Assembly: GCA_019057375.1 (NCBI GenBank)
Contig: DXJF01000069.1
Coordinates: 1 to 46,337, forward strand
Direction of reading: 5' to 3'
DNA length: 46,337 bases
Source: Candidatus Heimdallarchaeota archaeon
Lineage (GTDB): Archaea; Asgardarchaeota; Heimdallarchaeia; Heimdallarchaeales; Heimdallarchaeaceae
Every line of letters begins with the position of its first letter. Position 1 is the first letter of the stretch. A program made the position numbers and the translations under genes. The notes under the pieces were generated by a model. It did not search any database and was not told the DNA's origin. It worked only from the letters and a program-made list of their open reading frames with translations. This document shows positions 25,367-33,916 of the stretch, piece after piece.

Positions 25367-25455
25367 AAGATCACCTACAAATATATAATATACAATTAAG
25401 AAAGAAGATGTTTTAAAGATTACTTAAAGGGAAATAGAAATTAAATAAAAAATCA

Positions 25456-25480
25456 GAAAAGAAAGAAAAAGAAAGAAAAG
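25456..25480 (-). terminator. Oligo-U archaeal terminator after small protein S1
   Basis: A-rich gaaaagaaagaaaaagaaagaaaag on the + strand directly downstream of the S1 stop codon. Confidence 0.5.
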
Positions 25481-25487
25481 CTTAAGC

Positions 25488-25751
25488 TTAATGGAACGTT
25501 CCAATAATCTTGAATTTTAATTCTAATGCTTTGTTCCTTTCTTTTTCTAGCTCTTGTCTGATTTTATAGTTTTGATAAGCTTCATATCCTGGACATTTTC
25601 TATTATCATGCTGACATTCAAATAATATTTCAGCGAGCTGATCAATTAATTTGATTACTTTTTCTTCATCATCAATATTCACATTAGATAATGTTTTAAC
25701 ATTCTTGAAGGATCTTATTAGCTCGTTTTTATAGTCTGATTTTAGTGCCAT
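25488..25751 (-). CDS. Small helical protein S1 (87 aa), paralog of S2
   Basis: GGTGG RBS before ATG 25751; gapless 27/87 identity to S2 by hand count. Confidence 0.8.
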   Translation of the reverse strand: MALKSDYKNELIRSFKNVKTLSNVNIDDEEKVIKLIDQLAEILFECQHDNRKCPGYEAYQNYKIRQELEKERNKALELKFKIIGTFH

Positions 25752-25856
25752 GATACCACCTCTGATTATATGATTAGTACTAGTCTTATTAACTATCAAC
25801 CACAATCTGTGATTACAAATTGTGTCATTTTCTACCATTAAAAGGATATAAAGAGG

Positions 25857-26120
25857 TTAAAGGAAAGAACCTTTGTGTAAAAGAAGCTTGGACAGGGATT
25901 TGTTATGCTCGTTTTTTAGAGCTGTGCGAAGGATATGATCCTCATACTTATCGTGATCTTTTGAGTATTCATCTGCAAGAGTATAATTATACATATTCTC
26001 TGCAACCTGATTAAGAATCTGGAATAAGCTCTCTTCTTCAACAAACTCGTAATTAAATAGCTCTTTTAATGCTTTGAAATTTCTTATCAATTTATTTTTT
26101 TGCTCGATTTTCAATACCAT
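25857..26120 (-). CDS. Small helical protein S2 (87 aa)
   Basis: GGGTGA RBS, its own BRE/TATA and operator, and a paralog of S1. Confidence 0.8.
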   Translation of the reverse strand: MVLKIEQKNKLIRNFKALKELFNYEFVEEESLFQILNQVAENMYNYTLADEYSKDHDKYEDHILRTALKNEHNKSLSKLLLHKGSFL

Positions 26121-26170
26121 TTTTATTTTTCACCCGATTTTTTCTTATTCCTAAGAGATTGTAATCAATA

Positions 26171-26217
26171 TTCTCAATCTCTGAGAACATGTTCCCATAT
26201 ACATATATAAATGTTTC
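26171..26217 (-). promoter_or_regulatory. S2 promoter: BRE/TATA GAAACATTTATATAT plus TTCTCA-N5-TGAGAA operator
   Basis: + strand ttctca-atctc-tgagaa (26171-26187) and atatataaatgtttc (26203-26217); same layout as at 30769 and 32028. Confidence 0.75.
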
Positions 26218-26312
26218 TTATGGCGCGAACGTAAGATACTGCATGAAGAATTTATTCTTGCCTCAACGAAAGTTTAATATATACTTCTGCGAAGAGAGTA
26301 TACAGGAGAAAA

Positions 26313-27206
26313 ATGAATATGAGCACACTAGGGGGATATAACGACGTTCCTGAAGATTATGATCATTTATTAAAACAAGTAGAAGTAATAAGGGATCGAG
26401 AGAAAGTGGAGATGTTCTACGATCAAGGTTACTGGCCTATTCTGGCAATTTTAAGAGAGGGGCGTTTAACAGTAAGAGAAATAACTGCTAGATCAAATCA
26501 ACTTATTGAAAAAAAAGAATTACCCAAACTTAAAGAAAAATTAGAAAATTGGGAAATCCCTGAAGATAAAGAAAAATTGGAAAAGATTCTAAATAAAATA
26601 TCTGATTGGGAAACACTTCAGACTAAAGCTAAAGATTATAGTAAAGTTTTGAATGAAGACAAAATTAGTAGTTTAATAAAAAAAGAGAAATTCTCCAAAG
26701 AAGATGTTAAACTTATTAGAGATGTTATGTTGTTGTATAAACTTGACCATCACAAGAAATCTGATAAGACAATTTATAGATATATAAATGAATTAACTCA
26801 ATCAGGTCTATTAATAAAAGCTGGACAGCGAGTAATTACTGGTAAAACTGCTACAGAAACACTGTATGCACGTAGAGCAAAAATTTTCCTTTTGCGTCAA
26901 CAGTCCCATGATACCTGGAAATGTGATGAATGTAAAACTACACTTAAAAAAGTTGGTGCGCTTATAGGGTTATCAAAAAATATGGATTCACCATCAGTAG
27001 AAAGCCTAGCAAAACTTATGTCTAAAATAGATATGTACCATGAAGAAGAACAAATTAGATTGTTTGAGCAAAATGAGAAGGAAGTTCTAGGAATCATTAA
27101 AGACTGTAGTTTTAAGGAAACATCACATATTTTAGATACTTTTAGGATTGTTCATTTGCTAATGAATTTTCAAGAATTTAAAGAAGAGCTGGAAGATTGT
27201 TGCTGA
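26313..27206 (+). CDS. Winged-HTH (ArsR-like) transcriptional regulator, paralog A, with ~80-aa insertion
   Basis: PIL..LRE..LTVREI, KSDKTIYRYI.EL...GL..KAGQRV.TG.TATE.LYAR.A family motif shared with B-E. Confidence 0.8.
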   Translation: MNMSTLGGYNDVPEDYDHLLKQVEVIRDREKVEMFYDQGYWPILAILREGRLTVREITARSNQLIEKKELPKLKEKLENWEIPEDKEKLEKILNKISDWETLQTKAKDYSKVLNEDKISSLIKKEKFSKEDVKLIRDVMLLYKLDHHKKSDKTIYRYINELTQSGLLIKAGQRVITGKTATETLYARRAKIFLLRQQSHDTWKCDECKTTLKKVGALIGLSKNMDSPSVESLAKLMSKIDMYHEEEQIRLFEQNEKEVLGIIKDCSFKETSHILDTFRIVHLLMNFQEFKEELEDCC

Positions 27207-27263
27207 ATCAGCCTAAAATCTCTTCTTAGCATTCTTATTTTTTATCCAGAGGATAGAAAAAAC

Positions 27264-27301
27264 ATGTTTCTCTTTCAAAAAGTTTAAGTGGAGAGAAACA
27301 T
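27264..27301. promoter_or_regulatory. 10-bp inverted repeat bracketing the BRE/TATA of regulator B
   Basis: atgtttctct-[ttcaaaaagtttaagtgg]-agagaaacat. Confidence 0.5.
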
Positions 27302-27336
27302 TATTTAGAAGGTTAGAAATAAATATACTGTCTGAA

Positions 27337-28044
27337 ATGGAGAAAACTAACCAATCTGATTCTGAGTACAGAGATTTTATTGATAAAGAGTTCAAACAAG
27401 ATGGGTTCAAAATCATCAGAGATTCTGAAAAAATAGAGTTCTTCAAAGATAAGAATTATTTTACGGTATTAACTGTTCTGCGAGAAAAACCTATGACAGT
27501 TAAGGAAATAACTGTAAAATACAATCAGAAAATAGAAGAGAAAAGCAAAATATTTAACTGGACTGAAAGGGAGAGAACAGCCAGATTAAGAACAGATAAG
27601 ACTTTATACAGATATATCAAAGATCTTGTTAGGACAGACTTTATTGTTCAAGCAGGTCAAAGAGTTGTACTCGGTAGAACAATTACAGAAGCACTTTTTG
27701 CACGAACCGCAGTATTATTTTTCTTAGACGAAGAACCCATAGAATGGTGGGAGAGTAGGGTGGGAGAAAAAACGATAGAAAAAATTGCTGAACTAATGGA
27801 ATTATACTTAGACATTCCTAAACCTTCAACAGATTGTATAAAAAAGCTGGTTATCAAAATTGTTAAGTTTAATCAAAAAGAATTTTTCAAAGTTTTTGAG
27901 CAAGGCGCAGAAAAAGCATCGAAAGTTGTTTATTCATCAGAAAGGCTAGAGATAAATAGAGCTGTCCAAATTGTTAATATTATTTTAGCAATCATAAAAT
28001 CAGATGAATATGAACAAGAACTAAGAGATTGTCTTGGACTTTGA
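27337..28044 (+). CDS. Winged-HTH regulator, paralog B
   Basis: VL.VLREKPMTVKEI..KYN, RTDKTLYRYIKDL, AGQRV..GRT.TEALFARTA, WWES. Confidence 0.8.
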   Translation: MEKTNQSDSEYRDFIDKEFKQDGFKIIRDSEKIEFFKDKNYFTVLTVLREKPMTVKEITVKYNQKIEEKSKIFNWTERERTARLRTDKTLYRYIKDLVRTDFIVQAGQRVVLGRTITEALFARTAVLFFLDEEPIEWWESRVGEKTIEKIAELMELYLDIPKPSTDCIKKLVIKIVKFNQKEFFKVFEQGAEKASKVVYSSERLEINRAVQIVNIILAIIKSDEYEQELRDCLGL

Positions 28045-28117
28045 TTGTTTTTCCAAAAGGGGACCTGGGACCTTATTACAAGGTAAGTATTTATAGTACT
28101 TTCTTCTAGCAGTTAGT

Positions 28118-28441
28118 ATGACAGAAATAGCATACCACCTACGATGTGATTGTAAGAAATCAGTAAATGCTTATTCCTGTCCAGTTGGGTTGTTAAAACC
28201 AACTACTAAGCACAATTATGACTATTACCATTGTTCTTATTGTGATTTTGACTATATTTGTGATCATTCCATCAAAATAGAATTTGATTATGATGACAAA
28301 GGACTGCCAATGCAAAACACAATAGTATGCTCCAGATGTGGAACACAGCTAGAAGTATACTTATGGCCAAAACAAGGAGAAGAGCTGGGAGAGAGCGATT
28401 ACAAGACAAGATATGTAAGCATTTATAAACGAAACTATTAG
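28118..28441 (+). CDS. Small Cys-rich protein (paralog of 13479..13739)
   Basis: HLRCDC..CP..YYHC..C.FDYIC..VC..C...L....WP. Confidence 0.78.
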   Translation: MTEIAYHLRCDCKKSVNAYSCPVGLLKPTTKHNYDYYHCSYCDFDYICDHSIKIEFDYDDKGLPMQNTIVCSRCGTQLEVYLWPKQGEELGESDYKTRYVSIYKRNY

Positions 28442-28549
28442 CACTCAAGAAACTTTTCTTCAATAATGTAACTGTGATATTTTATATGACATGAAATCTT
28501 TGTTTTGTTAAGATGAAAATTTAAGAATAACAAGTACATACTCATCTCT

Positions 28550-29371
28550 ATGGTAAAGAAATCTCGTCAAAGAATAGAAAAATTCCCAATAACTCGTCAA
28601 ATTCTTTCAACATATAATGAAATTATTGTTCAATTCCCATATATGAGAGGTTTAGTTGAAGTTGATGTCACTGATGCCAAAAATAAAATCAGTTCATATG
28701 CGGATAAAACTGGTAAAAAAATATCCTTTACAGGCTGGGTTATCAAAGCAGTTAGCGAAGCTATCAAAGAGAACAAGATGATTCACGCATATAGAATTAG
28801 CAAAAGAAAAATAGTGATTCCTGATGAAGTTAGATTTGGTATAATGGTAGAGAGAAAATCTGAAAATGGCACTAAAATTCCCTCAATGGAAGTAATTTCA
28901 ACCCCTGAAAGCAGAACAGTAATTGAAATATCAGATGAAATACGAGCTTTACAAGATCTAATTATTGATGAAAAAGAACAACTCATGGGGAATCAAAATA
29001 TCAAGAGAAAACTGCAAAATATTTTATTCGCTATACTACCAGATTTCATTAGTAGAAGAATTATCAAGGGAATAGCAACCAATAAGGAGTTCATTACTAA
29101 ATTCAGTGGAACAGTAGGAGTTACAGCTTTAGGAATGTTTGGAAAAGATGCAAGTGGATATGCTATACATTTCCCAACAAGAACAATCGATTTAGCTCTG
29201 GGAACAGTTTCAGAGAAACCTAGGTATATTGATGGTAAACTAGCAAAACGAGATATTCTGAATGTGACTTTCAATATTGATCATAATATTGTAGATGGTG
29301 GTCCTGCTGCTAGATTCGTTTCTCGAGCAATAGAATTGATGCAATCAGCTTTTGGATTAGAAGATTTATAG
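28550..29371 (+). CDS. 2-oxoacid dehydrogenase acyltransferase (E2) catalytic-domain-only protein
   Basis: EVDVT, SFT.W.IKA...A, GT..VT..G, DH.IVDG..AARF (catalytic His); no lipoyl or E3-binding domain. Confidence 0.85.
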   Translation: MVKKSRQRIEKFPITRQILSTYNEIIVQFPYMRGLVEVDVTDAKNKISSYADKTGKKISFTGWVIKAVSEAIKENKMIHAYRISKRKIVIPDEVRFGIMVERKSENGTKIPSMEVISTPESRTVIEISDEIRALQDLIIDEKEQLMGNQNIKRKLQNILFAILPDFISRRIIKGIATNKEFITKFSGTVGVTALGMFGKDASGYAIHFPTRTIDLALGTVSEKPRYIDGKLAKRDILNVTFNIDHNIVDGGPAARFVSRAIELMQSAFGLEDL

Positions 29372-29375
29372 ACGA

Positions 29376-30026
29376 CTAATTTTCAGGAAAACTCTGCTGT
29401 AATTCCTTATTATAACTCTCAGGATGACGAAAAATCATTACTAAGGATAACAACTTAACAACTCTCATTATTTCTTCAGTCGAGCTGTCTTTGAAGATTT
29501 CATTAATTTTTCGTTTATTTTTATCGAAGAAACTGCTTAATTCTAGAGAGGTTAATGAATAAATTTTCAGAAGTAATTCTTTCAAATCATTATGGGAAGA
29601 ATCATCTTTATTGGTATGAAATGAAATCAACTTCCTTACTATTTCTATTAGCTTTTTACTTTCTTCAGATTCCCAATATTTTCTCTCAATTAAAACCATA
29701 GGAAACATTACAAGTGCAACGTTTGCATAGAGATTTTCCGTTGCGGTAGAGAATCGAGGTGTTCTCCTTCCTGCATTGATTACCAAGCCCACATCTTCAA
29801 GCTTACGAACATAATTATAAATAGATATTTCAGATTTCGGTGGAATATTTGTCTTATTATATGAAGAGGCTATCTCTTTGATAGTAGCAGGACCAGATCT
29901 TAGAATACGTATAATTTTAGACAAATTAGGATCACTATATGCTTTCAGTTGTTTTCTGTTTTGAATAATAAAAAGAGGTTTAGATTGAACAGTTATCAAA
30001 GTCTTAATATTGTCTTTAGTAGCCAA
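29376..30026 (-). CDS. Winged-HTH regulator, paralog C
   Basis: DP....II.ILR.GP.TIKEI...YN, KSE.SIYNYV..L...GLV..AG.R, TATE.LYA, YWESEES. Confidence 0.8.
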   Translation of the reverse strand: MATKDNIKTLITVQSKPLFIIQNRKQLKAYSDPNLSKIIRILRSGPATIKEIASSYNKTNIPPKSEISIYNYVRKLEDVGLVINAGRRTPRFSTATENLYANVALVMFPMVLIERKYWESEESKKLIEIVRKLISFHTNKDDSSHNDLKELLLKIYSLTSLELSSFFDKNKRKINEIFKDSSTEEIMRVVKLLSLVMIFRHPESYNKELQQSFPEN

Positions 30027-30030
30027 TTTA

Positions 30031-30678
30031 TTACCTCTTTATGTTGTCAAGCATCTTTAATTCTTTAAGAGATTCGACATAATTTTGGGGATTAAGTAGT
30101 ATAACTAGAGTTTCAAGCATTCTAGTTAGTTTATCAATTTGTTCAAAATCCAAATCAGAACAGAGTTTATTCACACTATCAGGATCTTTTTCGAAAATTT
30201 CAGCAACAATCACTTCTGATTTTGAATATATGTTCATAAAAAAAGATGATAGATCATCAATTTTAAACGGTTCAGAGTCAGTATACAGACTTAAAAGCTG
30301 TTGGCATTTCTCAAGAACATTCTTACTCTCTTCTGTTTTCCAGAAATCTTCAGATAAAATTACGGGATAATAGAGTATCGCGCGACGACTGTAAAGCACT
30401 TCACTAGCAGTTTTACCAGTAATTACTCGCTGACCAGCTTTCATTACTAGGCCTTGTTTGATAAGTTCTTGTAGATAATTGTAAATACTTGTTTGTTTCC
30501 TAGGTTTGTCTGCAATTTTGTTGTATTCATCAACTAAGTCTTTAATCGGTAGAGGTCTCTCTCTTAAAGCAATAAGGATATGAGTATATTTTGGATCAGT
30601 GACTAAATCAAATTTGAATTGCTCTTTCACAATACAAATTTGTTCAGGTTCATAAGTGATAAAATCCTGATACTCCAT
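30031..30678 (-). CDS. Winged-HTH regulator, paralog D
   Basis: DPKY..IL.ALRE.PL.IKDL..EYN, KQTSIYNYL.EL..QGLV.KAGQRVITGKTASE.LYSRRA, FWKTEES. ATG 30678 preferred from paralog alignment and an upstream TATA. Confidence 0.8.
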   Translation of the reverse strand: MEYQDFITYEPEQICIVKEQFKFDLVTDPKYTHILIALRERPLPIKDLVDEYNKIADKPRKQTSIYNYLQELIKQGLVMKAGQRVITGKTASEVLYSRRAILYYPVILSEDFWKTEESKNVLEKCQQLLSLYTDSEPFKIDDLSSFFMNIYSKSEVIVAEIFEKDPDSVNKLCSDLDFEQIDKLTRMLETLVILLNPQNYVESLKELKMLDNIKR

Positions 30679-30768
30679 TAATTCACATCTAAAACATTTG
30701 ACAATAAAACTTTTTCCTTGGAAATTTAAAAGTTTTGTCTTTTTTTGAATATCAGTCACAAGTTATGC

Positions 30769-30814
30769 GAAACATTTATATATTTTATGATAGATATTCT
30801 CACCAAGTGAGAAT
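30769..30814 (+). promoter_or_regulatory. S3 promoter: BRE/TATA GAAACATTTATATAT plus ATTCTCAC-caa-GTGAGAAT operator
   Basis: 15-mer at 30769-30783 is identical to that of the S2 promoter; perfect 8-3-8 palindrome at 30796-30814. Confidence 0.75.
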
Positions 30815-30914
30815 GACAGTGGAAGCACTAAAATTTTCAGAAGAGACTTAGCAAGACAAGAGACGGACTAATTTATCTCCTTGTCTTTTCTGAAAATTAA
30901 CATCTGGTGATTGA

Positions 30915-31202
30915 ATGACTCAGGAAATCAAGCAAAGAAGTCCAATAAACACAGTAAATGCACTAGTTTCAAAATTAAACAATGCTAAGGATATCTCTGA
31001 GGAAACTTTACTAAGAATATTTGATCAAATGGCTTCTGAATTTACAGTTACGCAACAGGAGTTTAATTTTCTACCAGATTTCAGGATTGAGTACAGTCAA
31101 TTAAAAGAAGAAACGGATGAACAACAAATAAAAACTAGAAAAAAAGTAGAATGTAGAGAAGATACTAAACTTTGTGGAACATATGCCAGTTTAATCGCTT
31201 AA
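30915..31202 (+). CDS. Small protein S3 (95 aa), divergent from regulator D
   Basis: GGTGAT RBS and its own promoter; EETLLRIFDQMASE resembles S1/S2 EE.(V/L)..(L/I).(D/N)Q.AE. Confidence 0.7.
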   Translation: MTQEIKQRSPINTVNALVSKLNNAKDISEETLLRIFDQMASEFTVTQQEFNFLPDFRIEYSQLKEETDEQQIKTRKKVECREDTKLCGTYASLIA

Positions 31203-31228
31203 GTTAAGATGAATAAAAAGTGCAATAT

Positions 31229-31263
31229 GATTTGAAAAAGCTCACCTTTTCAAATCTTTTTTT
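31229..31263. terminator. Hairpin plus U-tract between convergent S3 and regulator E
   Basis: gatttgaaaa-agctcacc-ttttcaaatc (10-bp stem) followed by a T run. Confidence 0.55.
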
Positions 31264-31928
31264 TAACAACCACATTTTTCGAGTTCTTTTGAAAAATCTT
31301 TGCTTTTCATTAGGAGAATTAAAGTACCTAAGATATCAAATATATTGTCAACTTCTTTGAATGTAAAGCCTGAAATTATTTTATAAATTGCATCATTGTT
31401 TTCTTCAAAGAATGCGCCCAGCGTATCTGAGGATGTTTTATAAGTTTTATTCAAAAGATTACCTAGATCTTCAGCAGATATCGTAGAGTTCTCTTGATAG
31501 AGACCCAGTATATCTCTAAGTGCGTTTAGAGTTTTTTTACTATCTTCACTTTTCCAGTAATCTTCTTTATCAGTTAGATTCCAAAATATTTTTGCAGTTC
31601 GACCATACAAAGTTTCAGCGGCAGATTGACCAGTTTTGATTCTTTTTCCAACTTCTTTAACAAGGTCTATTTTATCTAATTCTTTTACATACCTGTAAAT
31701 TGTCATTTCAGATTTTGTTGTTATTTCAGATTTTGGATCTTCTGCAAGTTGATTATACTTCTCAACTAATTCTTTAATTGTTAAAGGTCCCTCACGAAGA
31801 ACAATTATTATAGGTTCCATGTTTTTATCAAATAATTTAGAAGTAATTTCTTTATCTCTTATAAGCTTGACACCTATTTGAGGTCGAGTAATAACGTCTT
31901 GAGTTTCATCAGAGTTCATTTTGTTCAC
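31263..31928 (-). CDS. Winged-HTH regulator, paralog E
   Basis: LIRDKE, PII.VLREGPLTIKEL..KYN, KSEMTIYRYVKEL, VG.R.KTG..A.ETLYGRTA, YWKSEDS. Confidence 0.8.
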   Translation of the reverse strand: MNKMNSDETQDVITRPQIGVKLIRDKEITSKLFDKNMEPIIIVLREGPLTIKELVEKYNQLAEDPKSEITTKSEMTIYRYVKELDKIDLVKEVGKRIKTGQSAAETLYGRTAKIFWNLTDKEDYWKSEDSKKTLNALRDILGLYQENSTISAEDLGNLLNKTYKTSSDTLGAFFEENNDAIYKIISGFTFKEVDNIFDILGTLILLMKSKDFSKELEKCGC

Positions 31929-32027
31929 TTTTTCGTTTCATGATAAGTATGTTTTAATCATTAATAAGTGTTTTTATAAGACATGATGGGTGTCATTTCA
32001 ACAAATGTGGCAAGAATTTCATAGAAC

Positions 32028-32075
32028 GAAACCTTTATTAACACATAATGGTATATTGTTCTTAAGCAATGAGAA
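32028..32075 (+). promoter_or_regulatory. S4 promoter: BRE/TATA GAAACCTTTATTAAC plus TTCTTA-N5-TGAGAA operator
   Basis: gaaacctttattaac (32028-32042); ttctta-agcaa-tgagaa (32059-32075), one mismatch to the motif. Confidence 0.65.
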
Positions 32076-32087
32076 TGGTGAAAGAAA

Positions 32088-32324
32088 ATGGCAACAACAA
32101 CAATCTCAAAAAACTCAAAAATCTCTGATTTCAGGCTCAGAGAAGAAGTATCAGTGTATGACCGTCTTACAAAATTAACCAAAGACGCAAAGAAGGTCTA
32201 TTCCTTAAATGGATCTAATCACAATAACCTTGAGGTTTCAACTGAAGTAGTTGAAGCTCATTTAGCTAGACAAAAAGCAAAAGCTTTCAGAAGCATATAT
32301 CACACTGGTGCATTCCATCACTAG
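32088..32324 (+). CDS. Small protein S4 (78 aa), divergent from regulator E
   Basis: GGTGA RBS, its own promoter and an oligo-T terminator; C-terminal KA...G.FH resembles S1/S2. Confidence 0.72.
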   Translation: MATTTISKNSKISDFRLREEVSVYDRLTKLTKDAKKVYSLNGSNHNNLEVSTEVVEAHLARQKAKAFRSIYHTGAFHH

Positions 32325-32346
32325 TTTTTCTTTTTTTTCTTTTTTT
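32325..32346 (+). terminator. Oligo-U terminator after S4
   Basis: A long T-rich tract broken by single C bases follows the stop codon directly. Confidence 0.55.
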
Positions 32347-32395
32347 CCTCTTTAGAATACAATAATCATTAAATACTTACATTAAGCTATTAATC

Positions 32396-33916
32396 TTGAT
32401 GTCTTCTCCAGATTTTGACACAATTGTAATTGGAGCTGGAGTCTCAGGTCTTTCATGTGCAGCTCATTTAGCTAAAGAAGGTAAGAAGGTAATGGTCTTC
32501 GAACAAGGGAAAAAACCTGGTGGGTATTGTTGTTCATACACCCGTAAGAAACTTGTTTTTGATCCAGGTGCTCATTGGATCTTAGATGGACCGGGGTTTA
32601 ATTCTCTATTAGAGTCTTTGAACACTGAGCCAATAGATTTCATTCGCTTGAATTCTGTTTATAGGATACTTGGTCCAACAAAATATGTTGATATTCACTT
32701 TTCTGAGAAAGAGCTTTTTATTAAATCTATGAGAAAATCTTTCCCTCATGTTAAAGATGCAAATCTAACTAAGCTGATAGATATAGCAGATACCATTAAA
32801 AAAGAAATGGACGAAATGCCGACTGATAGTCTAGAACTGCTTTCACTATTTGGTAAAGTTAAAACTGGCGTTACTATGCTCTTGAAAGCTCGTAATATGA
32901 TGAAATACAGCTCCCTTAAGCTTCAGGTTTTCTTAGATGAATTATTCCCGGGAGACGATTATAAGGACTTAAGAGCCGCTCTCCACATAGCTCCAGGTGA
33001 AGACATAACAGCTATTGCACTTTTAGTTTTTCTAGCTTTTGGGATGGAAAAATCTGCATGGAGTCCAAAAGGTGGTGCTCAAAAGATATCCGATGCTCTT
33101 GCAAAAGCTGTTAAGAAGAATGGGGGAAAAATAGTTTACTCCAAGAAAGTTGTGAAAATTGAAATTGAGGGTAAAAGAATCAAAGGAGTTGTATTAGACG
33201 ATAAATCTAAATTTACAGCTAAATCTGTCGTTGCAGCCATAGATGCGAAACAGCTTTATTATCAACTATTGAGCCCAGAAATAATTCCAAAGAAGTTAAA
33301 GCGCAAAATTGATGAGACACCCTTTGCAGATTCTTGGTTTTCTGTTTCCATTGTAACAGATTTGAATCCTACAAATTACGATTTTGATGGTTCAGATGTT
33401 CTTTTACTGAACACTAATGACATTGTAGAAGCAGGTAAACCGAACAATCCTGAGAAAAACAGTTTTGTAGCAAAGTTTAACACACTTCACGATGATTCCT
33501 TTAAACTTATAGGAGCAAAAGCAGAACATCATGGGATCCATCTCCTCTCTCCAGCTACCTTTGATTATAGCAATTACTGGAAAGCAGGAAAGAAGCTAAA
33601 TCGTGGGGAAAAATACATTAAATTCAAGGAAAAATTTGCTCAAAAGCTTATAAAACGGATGGAAGAAAGAATACCTAATCTTAGCAAACACATTGTTCAA
33701 ATGGATATTAGCACACCCTTAACGTATCATAGATACACTCTCAATCATTATGGCTCAGGATTGGGATGGTCAGATATGCTCCTTTGGAAACAAAAAATCA
33801 GATTCATGAAAGGCCTTTACGCATGTGGCATGTGGAGCTTTCCAGGACCAATGGTTGAACCTTCAATAGAATCTGGAAAAAATGCAGCTGAATTAGTATT
33901 AAAGTATCTCAAATAA
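32396..33916 (+). CDS. Phytoene desaturase / retinol-saturase-like FAD-dependent oxidoreductase
   Basis: VIGAGVSGL..A..LA..G.KV.VFEQ...PGGY, FD.GAH, PKGG...I..AL, TPLT..RYT....GS..G, LY..G....PG. Confidence 0.8.
   Translation: MMSSPDFDTIVIGAGVSGLSCAAHLAKEGKKVMVFEQGKKPGGYCCSYTRKKLVFDPGAHWILDGPGFNSLLESLNTEPIDFIRLNSVYRILGPTKYVDIHFSEKELFIKSMRKSFPHVKDANLTKLIDIADTIKKEMDEMPTDSLELLSLFGKVKTGVTMLLKARNMMKYSSLKLQVFLDELFPGDDYKDLRAALHIAPGEDITAIALLVFLAFGMEKSAWSPKGGAQKISDALAKAVKKNGGKIVYSKKVVKIEIEGKRIKGVVLDDKSKFTAKSVVAAIDAKQLYYQLLSPEIIPKKLKRKIDETPFADSWFSVSIVTDLNPTNYDFDGSDVLLLNTNDIVEAGKPNNPEKNSFVAKFNTLHDDSFKLIGAKAEHHGIHLLSPATFDYSNYWKAGKKLNRGEKYIKFKEKFAQKLIKRMEERIPNLSKHIVQMDISTPLTYHRYTLNHYGSGLGWSDMLLWKQKIRFMKGLYACGMWSFPGPMVEPSIESGKNAAELVLKYLK

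Follow-up and report, generated by a model that had tools for sequence, protein, structure and literature searches.

A TATA-proximal palindrome as the probable operator of a PH1932-like wHTH regulator family in Asgard archaea

Asgard archaea are the closest prokaryotic relatives of eukaryotes and most of them are uncultured; to our knowledge, almost nothing has been established experimentally about gene-specific transcription control in these organisms. Among the better described systems, SurR of Pyrococcus furiosus carries two wHTH domains per chain, recognizes the motif GTTn3AAC and has a redox switch, PadR has an operator, ATGT-N8-ACAT, with 12 bp between the centres of its arms, and some archaeal repressors also use a site at the BRE/TATA to block TBP/TFB. 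In the case of Phr, LrpA, MDR1 and TrmB, an inverted repeat 3' of the TATA box blocks polymerase recruitment (cf. review PMC7289017). A structure has also been described for PH1932 of Pyrococcus horikoshii (2008, Proteins 70:1631, cited in PMC4486848). In the literature that we searched, PH1932 has no reported operator, regulon or ligand, and we found no account of an operator in Asgard archaea.

Here we analyzed a 46-kb stretch of DNA (the window), which is contig C14 of a 3.47-Mb, 159-contig assembly; the names of the closest database proteins point to Candidatus Heimdallarchaeaceae. The window carries three copies of a palindrome, each of which precedes a small ORF that is divergent from one member of a paralogous wHTH family (A-E), as follows.

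25488-25838: S1, which follows S2 after an 18-bp gap
25857..26120, minus strand: S2, small protein of 87 aa, first gene of the putatively regulated transcript
26171..26187: palindrome O(S2), TTCTCAGAGATTGAGAA on the minus strand, 16 bp 3' of the TATA 8-mer of the S2-S1 promoter
26203..26217, minus strand: BRE/TATA of the S2 promoter, GAAACATTTATATAT, TATA 8-mer at 26204-26211
26215..26231: degenerate second palindrome over the BRE of S2, weak in the window (6/10 core matches)
26313..27206, plus strand: wHTH paralogue A, 297 aa, divergent from S2
27337..28044, plus strand: wHTH paralogue B, 235 aa
29376..30026, minus strand: wHTH paralogue C, 216 aa, 4 bp 3' of D
30031..30759, minus strand: wHTH paralogue D, divergent from S3
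30769..30783, plus strand: BRE/TATA of the S3 promoter, GAAACATTTATATAT, TATA 8-mer at 30775-30782
30797..30813: palindrome O(S3), TTCTCACCAAGTGAGAA, 14 bp 3' of the TATA box
30915..31202, plus strand: S3, small protein of 95 aa, with a leader of ~100 nt
31263..31928, minus strand: wHTH paralogue E, 218-221 aa, divergent from S4; the protein whose structure was modelled
32028..32042, plus strand: BRE/TATA of the S4 promoter, GAAACCTTTATTAAC, TATA 8-mer at 32034-32041
32059..32075: palindrome O(S4), TTCTTAAGCAATGAGAA, with one arm mismatch, 17 bp 3' of the TATA box
32088..32324, plus strand: S4, small protein of 78 aa
32396-33916: FAD amine-oxidase-like gene after S4

Paralogues C and D probably form one operon, and the true start of D is likely the ATG at 30678, which lies behind a TATA-like box of its own. 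Pfam and NCBIfam searches with the five regulators and the four small proteins, S2 included, gave no family above the cutoffs. Two further regions of the window showed repeats of a different kind. The S3 leader contains, between 30832 and 30898, an inverted repeat (AAUUUUCAGAAGAGAC...GUCUUUUCUGAAAAUU) with a 16-bp stem and an MFE of -32 kcal/mol (z-score -2.57), which might serve as attenuator, terminator or a further binding site; a 12-codon ORF also begins in this leader, at 30814. The region upstream of paralogue B (27207-27336) contains a wide inverted repeat, GTTTCTC-N20-GAGAAAC; its right arm continues into the BRE/TATA-like GAAACATTATTTAGA, and the spacing of the repeat does not fit the operator.

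Read in the direction of transcription, the S2 promoter (minus strand) consists of GAAACATTTATATAT (26217-26203), N15 and TTCTCAGAGATTGAGAA (26187-26171), the S3 promoter of GAAACATTTATATAT, N13 and TTCTCACCAAGTGAGAA, and the S4 promoter of GAAACCTTTATTAAC, N16 and TTCTTAAGCAATGAGAA, where one arm is TTCTTA instead of TTCTCA. In all three the palindrome is located 14-17 bp 3' of a TTTATATA-type TATA box. Re-reading of the sequence confirmed these strings as they had been written in a preliminary description of the locus, and also its observations that the 15-bp BRE/TATA is the same in two of the three promoters (S2 and S3) and that the palindrome is absent from other intergenic regions of the window. 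TTCTYA-N5-TGAGAA matches at these three places alone, compared with a mean of 0.14 matches in dinucleotide shuffles of the window (GC 30-35%), none of which reached the observed count in 100 trials. The shared 15-mer has just three copies in the whole genome; separately, the BRE/TATA string AAACATTTATATA has only seven copies genome-wide, four of them at promoters with the palindrome. Orthologous sites are found for O(S2) in loci L002, L004, L005 and L030, and for O(S3) in L006, L007 and L008, and the orthologue of O(S4) in L007 is a perfect palindrome, TTCTCAAGAACTGAGAA.

The preliminary description had proposed that the motif should be enriched beside family members, and the scan of the complete genome was strongly positive. 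There are six copies of the perfect TTCTCA-N5-TGAGAA, where base composition would predict ~0.4 (an estimate), and five of these sites (two in C14, C89:14168, C89:28517 and C131:6243) are in intergenic promoters divergent from wHTH family genes, at 38-142 bp from them. The sixth, C154:24088, precedes a GNAT-like gene and lies next to no member of the family. A search with an HMM of the paralogues identified 11 family members in this genome, and the three most distant ones (C90, C150, C56) have upstream variants with one extra spacer base, TTCTC-N8-GAGAA. When the spacer of TTCTC-Nx-GAGAA was varied from 3 to 12, the total number of sites formed a flat background (6-18 per spacing), while sites within 400 bp of a family gene occurred five times each at x = 7 and x = 8 and were absent at seven other spacings; the single site at x = 9 is located inside a family gene. 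The functional core of the motif is TTCTC-N7-GAGAA, with N8 at the distant paralogues. Furthermore, the composite of a good TATA box, a gap of 14-17 bp and an exact palindrome was found five times in the genome, in all five cases beside family genes, compared with 0-1 in a reversed-genome control.

Sites with one mismatch behaved differently: composites of a TATA box with a one-mismatch palindrome were at background frequency (15 and 1, vs 20 and 5 in the reversed genome), and such sites near the single-copy family genes of other families of the order were not significant alone. Their use for widening the regulon was rejected on this ground, and from then on only exact sites were counted. Because one-mismatch sites are at background, O(S4) is credible only through its context and its orthologues, including the perfect one in L007.

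The predicted targets in this genome are diverse. Sites precede two MFS transporters, the GNAT-like gene on C154, a secreted AAT/Ntn-hydrolase-like protein, and a gene for a small protein, after which comes a zinc alcohol dehydrogenase. The site at C89:28517 precedes a gene that resembles the C154 gene in size and N-terminal sequence, as judged by reading the translations; of the two proteins, that of C154 matches Pfam GNAT and that of C89 has no Pfam match. The association with small-gene promoters that had been described at S2, S3 and S4 thus holds for these three but is not specific, since MFS transporter, GNAT-like and hydrolase-like genes carry the motif too. These modules of regulator and target resemble the local divergent layout of PadR, MarR and TetR systems. 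In addition, C154:24088 (G000) and C132:3854 of a related genome (G011) share an identical 17-mer, TTCTCACGCAATGAGAA, 5' of a GNAT-like gene that has no regulator of the family beside it; the TATA-like CTTATAAG lies 3 bp 3' of it, in a register that differs from that of the other sites. We regard this site as a candidate remote member of the regulon.

We then compared the site in a set of 31 promoters. The TATA 8-mer and the palindrome were separated by 16 bp in 18 of them, 14 bp in four, 17 bp in four, 15 bp in two and 12 bp in three. Ten core positions had been fixed by the search, with one pyrimidine/purine swap allowed, and their constancy is no evidence. No base had been prescribed at positions 6 and 12, which were A in 26 and T in 23 of the 31 promoters, respectively, and the spacer was free. 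In a set of 60 distinct sites, positions 6 and 12 were A/T in 47, and the sixth base next to the arms was A in 100 of 120 half-sites. The other 13 sites deviate at these positions, with loss of complementarity in 12. The centre of the palindrome is free as well: the 60 sites contain 48 different central 5-mers, and the inner spacer positions are complementary at chance level (17 and 11 of 60). The centres of the two arms are 12 bp apart. If the TATA box is centred near -26/-27, as is usual in archaea, the main palindrome would span about -8 to +12, across the expected start. GGTGA ribosome-binding sites directly 3' of the palindrome, at S4 and at C131, fit a start inside the repeat.

Some promoters have an additional copy of the palindrome over the BRE. 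In 10 of the 31, a second palindrome with at least 8/10 core matches ends 3 bp 5' of the TATA box; at offsets 4-9 no promoter had one, and at offsets 0-2 there were 0-2. Its centre is 42-44 bp from that of the first, which is about four helical turns, in phase. The clearest layout is that of C90, where the TATA box of the divergent MFS transporter gene lies between two perfect sites at a distance of 44 bp from each other, and the upstream site abuts the BRE/TATA of the regulator itself. In the window these BRE-overlapping sites are degenerate (6-7/10 core matches), and relatives have a strong second operator in the register of the degenerate palindrome at 26215..26231. The BRE (GAAAC) may also double as a degenerate, GAGAA-like right arm of the upstream operator.

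Regarding the protein, a profile search of PDB sequences gave a full-length match to PH1932 (1uly/2cwe), with E values for 1uly_A of 1.5e-6 using profile A1 and 6.3e-11 using the broader cross-phylum profile A3, the latter covering profile positions 15-213 of 217 and residues 3-184 of 192. According to the AF2 model (pLDDT 85.5), paralogue E has two short N-terminal strands, helices at 35-43, 48-59 and 71-83, the last being the recognition helix, a wing at 87-107 and five C-terminal helices. A Foldseek search with this model placed 1uly and 2cwe on top (E 8e-10 and 4e-9, TM 0.58-0.66); the next matches, PadR, LmrR, YodB and CzrA, were six orders of magnitude weaker and covered the wHTH only. 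The regulator is thus a full-length homologue of PH1932, an ArsR-type wHTH protein, which is also its best structural match and has the same order of an N-terminal wHTH followed by a C-terminal helical domain. Sequence identity is only ~21%, and the Asgard proteins differ in having a variable insert on the N-terminal side of the recognition helix and a lineage-specific expansion. Pfam HTH_5 (PF01022) stayed below its gathering threshold (best 15.5 bits vs a cutoff of 22, in one of the five paralogues), as did NCBIfam HTH_metalloreg (12.9 vs a cutoff of 55). The family is a small one, with 419 clusters at E <= 1e-3 among 1.84 billion representatives, and a word-index search with the broad profile returned Asgard proteins alone.

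Paralogues are ~30-35% identical to each other, and they all share one recognition helix and one motif. The segment of recognition helix and wing, KSDKTIYRYLKxLExxGLV..AGxRV, is conserved across paralogues and phyla and the C-terminal domain varies, a pattern that fits a single DNA specificity with diversified sensing. Several variations on this plan were observed. Paralogue A (26313-27206) has a Lys/Glu-rich insert of ~75 aa in its wHTH, after helix 2 and ahead of the recognition helix, and paralogue B and C89:28637 have shorter inserts at the same place. Two Cys recur in the C-terminal domain in alignment A3 and in the C-terminal parts of paralogues A, B and E, one in S..C[LI] in mid-domain and one in L..C at the C-terminus, the latter with the variant CC/CGC in paralogues A and E; they are present in many members, and paralogue E lacks the first (S..CL). 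As judged from the alignment, the two cysteines could form a redox or metal sensing site. Additionally, P0036 and about 30 others among the matches listed are tandem single-chain regulators of 450-520 aa. They contain two complete copies, and a TIYRY recognition helix is present in each copy; these fusions support a two-fold binding unit.

The preliminary description had also called for a scan of relatives, which was likewise positive. Of the 41 genomes in the order, 38 encode members of the wHTH family, with 0-12 copies (mostly 2-12) per genome in the genus and mostly one elsewhere. The 24 congeneric genomes contain 56 perfect palindromes, compared with 10 for the reversed control pattern; 34 of the 56 are within 250 bp of a listed family gene (coordinates compared by hand), a zone that makes up ~0.1% of each genome, and counts such as these come from related genomes and are to be read as non-independent samples. 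Nearly all same-genus loci (L002-L022, L027, L030) have the site, L003 only in the one-mismatch S4 form. We also analyzed 80 further loci from species-representative genomes (260 kb, GC 34-49%), labelled as Heimdall-, Thor-, Odin-, Hermod-, Hod-, Kari- and Promethearchaeota MAGs, and found 57 exact TTCTC-N7/8-GAGAA sites vs ~1.5 per control pattern. The loci span GC contents of 34-49% and ~30% protein identity, which argues that this non-coding conservation is not inherited noise. In the Thor loci, the order of TATA box, 16 bp and palindrome is again found before the neighbouring gene, and in the Hermod/Promethearchaeota group the palindrome is 4-5 bp 5' of the TATA-like box of the regulator itself, a position typical of self-repression.

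Other features of the Hermod/Promethearchaeota loci were also conserved. In L056, L061, L064, L066, L069, L071-L073, L082 and L101, a lone half-site, TGAGAAYAA, lies ~45 bp 3' of the palindrome and just 5' of the start codon of the regulator, and the downstream gene, which is convergent, codes in every case for a secreted protein with a PDYWPTDGWR motif. The GNAT-like protein of C154 showed weakly significant similarity to a Promethearchaeota neighbour protein (E 9e-5 over 100 residues), and the comparison of the C89 protein with the same neighbour was not significant (E 0.24); this is no more than a hint of a common ancestral GNAT-like partner gene across phyla.

These data have to be weighed against other explanations of the palindrome. 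It could be bound by an unrelated regulator, with the wHTH genes as targets or bystanders, given that the family assignment derives from co-localisation alone, that the perfect site C154:24088, identical in G011, is far from any family gene, and that 22 of the 56 congeneric perfect sites are not beside a listed family gene. However, the ~10 background matches indicated by the reversed control explain much of this unlinked fraction, and the wHTH family is the sole gene class common to all sites, the targets being as different as small proteins, MFS transporters, GNAT-like, AAT-like and ADH genes. The association also holds across phyla where nothing else is conserved, and conservation of the recognition helix parallels that of the motif, so that we consider an unrelated binder unlikely. 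The same wHTH protein might, on the other hand, be an activator or a dual regulator that recruits TBP/TFB, for example, from the BRE-proximal site. SurR, TrmBL1 and other archaeal regulators activate or repress according to site position, and this precedent, together with the second site just 5' of the TATA box in 10 of 31 promoters, speaks for such a role. Nevertheless, the invariant site is the one 3' of the TATA box, across the expected start, which is the classical repressing position, and the upstream site, with its end only 3 bp from the TATA box, overlaps the BRE instead of lying 5' of it; an activating or dual role appears improbable on these grounds.

Explanations that dispense with a bound protein fare worse. 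The palindrome would be partly transcribed and could fold into a 6-bp stem with a 5-nt loop, and an RNA hairpin at the 5' end of the transcript might affect stability or translation. Yet among the sites that vary at the sixth stem position, 12 of 13 are unpaired, and it is the arm sequence and not the pairing that is conserved; with a free centre and uncompensated deviations the palindrome is better understood as a protein site than as an RNA stem. Moreover, second copies lie 5' of the TATA box, where they are untranscribed in that direction, and the repeat would contain the expected start. Rfam gave no match either, apart from a sub-threshold chance match to a viral CRE in a scan of 25400-32500. 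We consider a hairpin very improbable. A functionless, neutral remnant of a recent duplication of the whole module has in its favour that the modules are clearly paralogous and that S2 and S3 share the identical 15-mer. The adjacent wHTH proteins are, however, only 30-35% identical, too little for non-coding similarity to be left over from duplication, paralogous promoters have unrelated sequences in the TATA-palindrome interval and at the central 5 bp, and the motif is also kept in other phyla; this block-wise pattern of conservation effectively refutes a neutral remnant, to which we give hardly any credence. HSF-type heat-shock elements, which are also of the form TTC..GAA, were dropped as a candidate because there was no homology signal.

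We consider it likely, then, that members of a PH1932-like ArsR-type wHTH family bind TTCTC(A)-N5-(T)GAGAA as their operator, where a dimer would occlude the start of the divergent gene. That the palindrome is the putative operator of the divergently encoded wHTH family, as originally proposed, is supported by every computational test available. The window encodes five paralogues of the regulator family. In the proposed mechanism, a dimer, with one recognition helix per arm, would bind 14-17 bp 3' of the TATA box, cover the expected start of the divergent gene (S2-S1, S3, or S4 with the oxidoreductase) and block the recruitment of RNA polymerase. A signal sensed by the variable C-terminal helical domain would release the dimer. 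In some promoters the second palindrome, 42-44 bp away, would additionally cover the BRE, and where the promoter of the regulator itself abuts this second palindrome, the regulator probably represses its own gene too. Physical binding, dimer stoichiometry, the start site, repression rather than activation, and the inducer are all inferred from sequence.

The arrangement resembles that of Phr, LrpA, MDR1 and TrmB in its repeat 3' of the TATA box and, sometimes, an extra site over the BRE/TATA, but those regulators belong to other protein families with other motifs, come from Euryarchaeota/Crenarchaeota and have been footprinted, whereas the Asgard site comes from comparative genomics alone. PadR/LmrR regulators (B. 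subtilis PadR on its operator, PDB 5X11) also combine a wHTH with a C-terminal helical domain and are local regulators divergent from detoxification or transporter genes, and the PadR operator has the same 12-bp centre-to-centre spacing of its arms; the half-site sequence differs, however, as do the promoters, which are bacterial, the structural similarity is weak and limited to the wHTH (Foldseek E about 3e-3, TM about 0.3), and the Asgard regulators have no Pfam PadR match. The tandem Asgard forms of 450-520 aa recall SurR and, by analogy, may act like a covalent dimer reading a two-part site; the GTTn3AAC motif and the redox switch of SurR are unrelated to the Asgard system.

More tentatively, the data may reflect an ancient regulator-operator pair common to most Asgard phyla, with the fixed geometry of TATA box, 16 bp and palindrome, the regulator of which would have expanded in Heimdallarchaeaceae to 8-12 paralogues forming a network of cross-talking repressors; we regard this as possible but doubtful. 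In such a network, the paralogues would all have retained a common recognition helix and a common operator and differ in their diverged C-terminal sensor domains, so that several sensors would converge on the same sites and control small unannotated proteins and detoxification-type genes. The possible conserved Cys pair might act there as a redox or metal switch, and paired sites would bracket the TATA box.

A repressor on the start site is a conventional mechanism, and the main value of the finding is the conserved regulator-operator pair. The analysis yields a testable candidate cis-element for Asgard archaea, a 17-bp site in a defined promoter register, together with its candidate cognate regulator. 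The predicted regulon is small and consists of small proteins, MFS transporters, GNAT-like enzymes and oxidoreductases. Genomes labelled Heimdall-, Thor- and Promethearchaeota share the pairing of regulator and site, which makes it accessible to tests that use synthetic DNA and recombinant protein. The pairing would also be a first functional lead for the PH1932 family, whose structure is solved and whose function is orphan.
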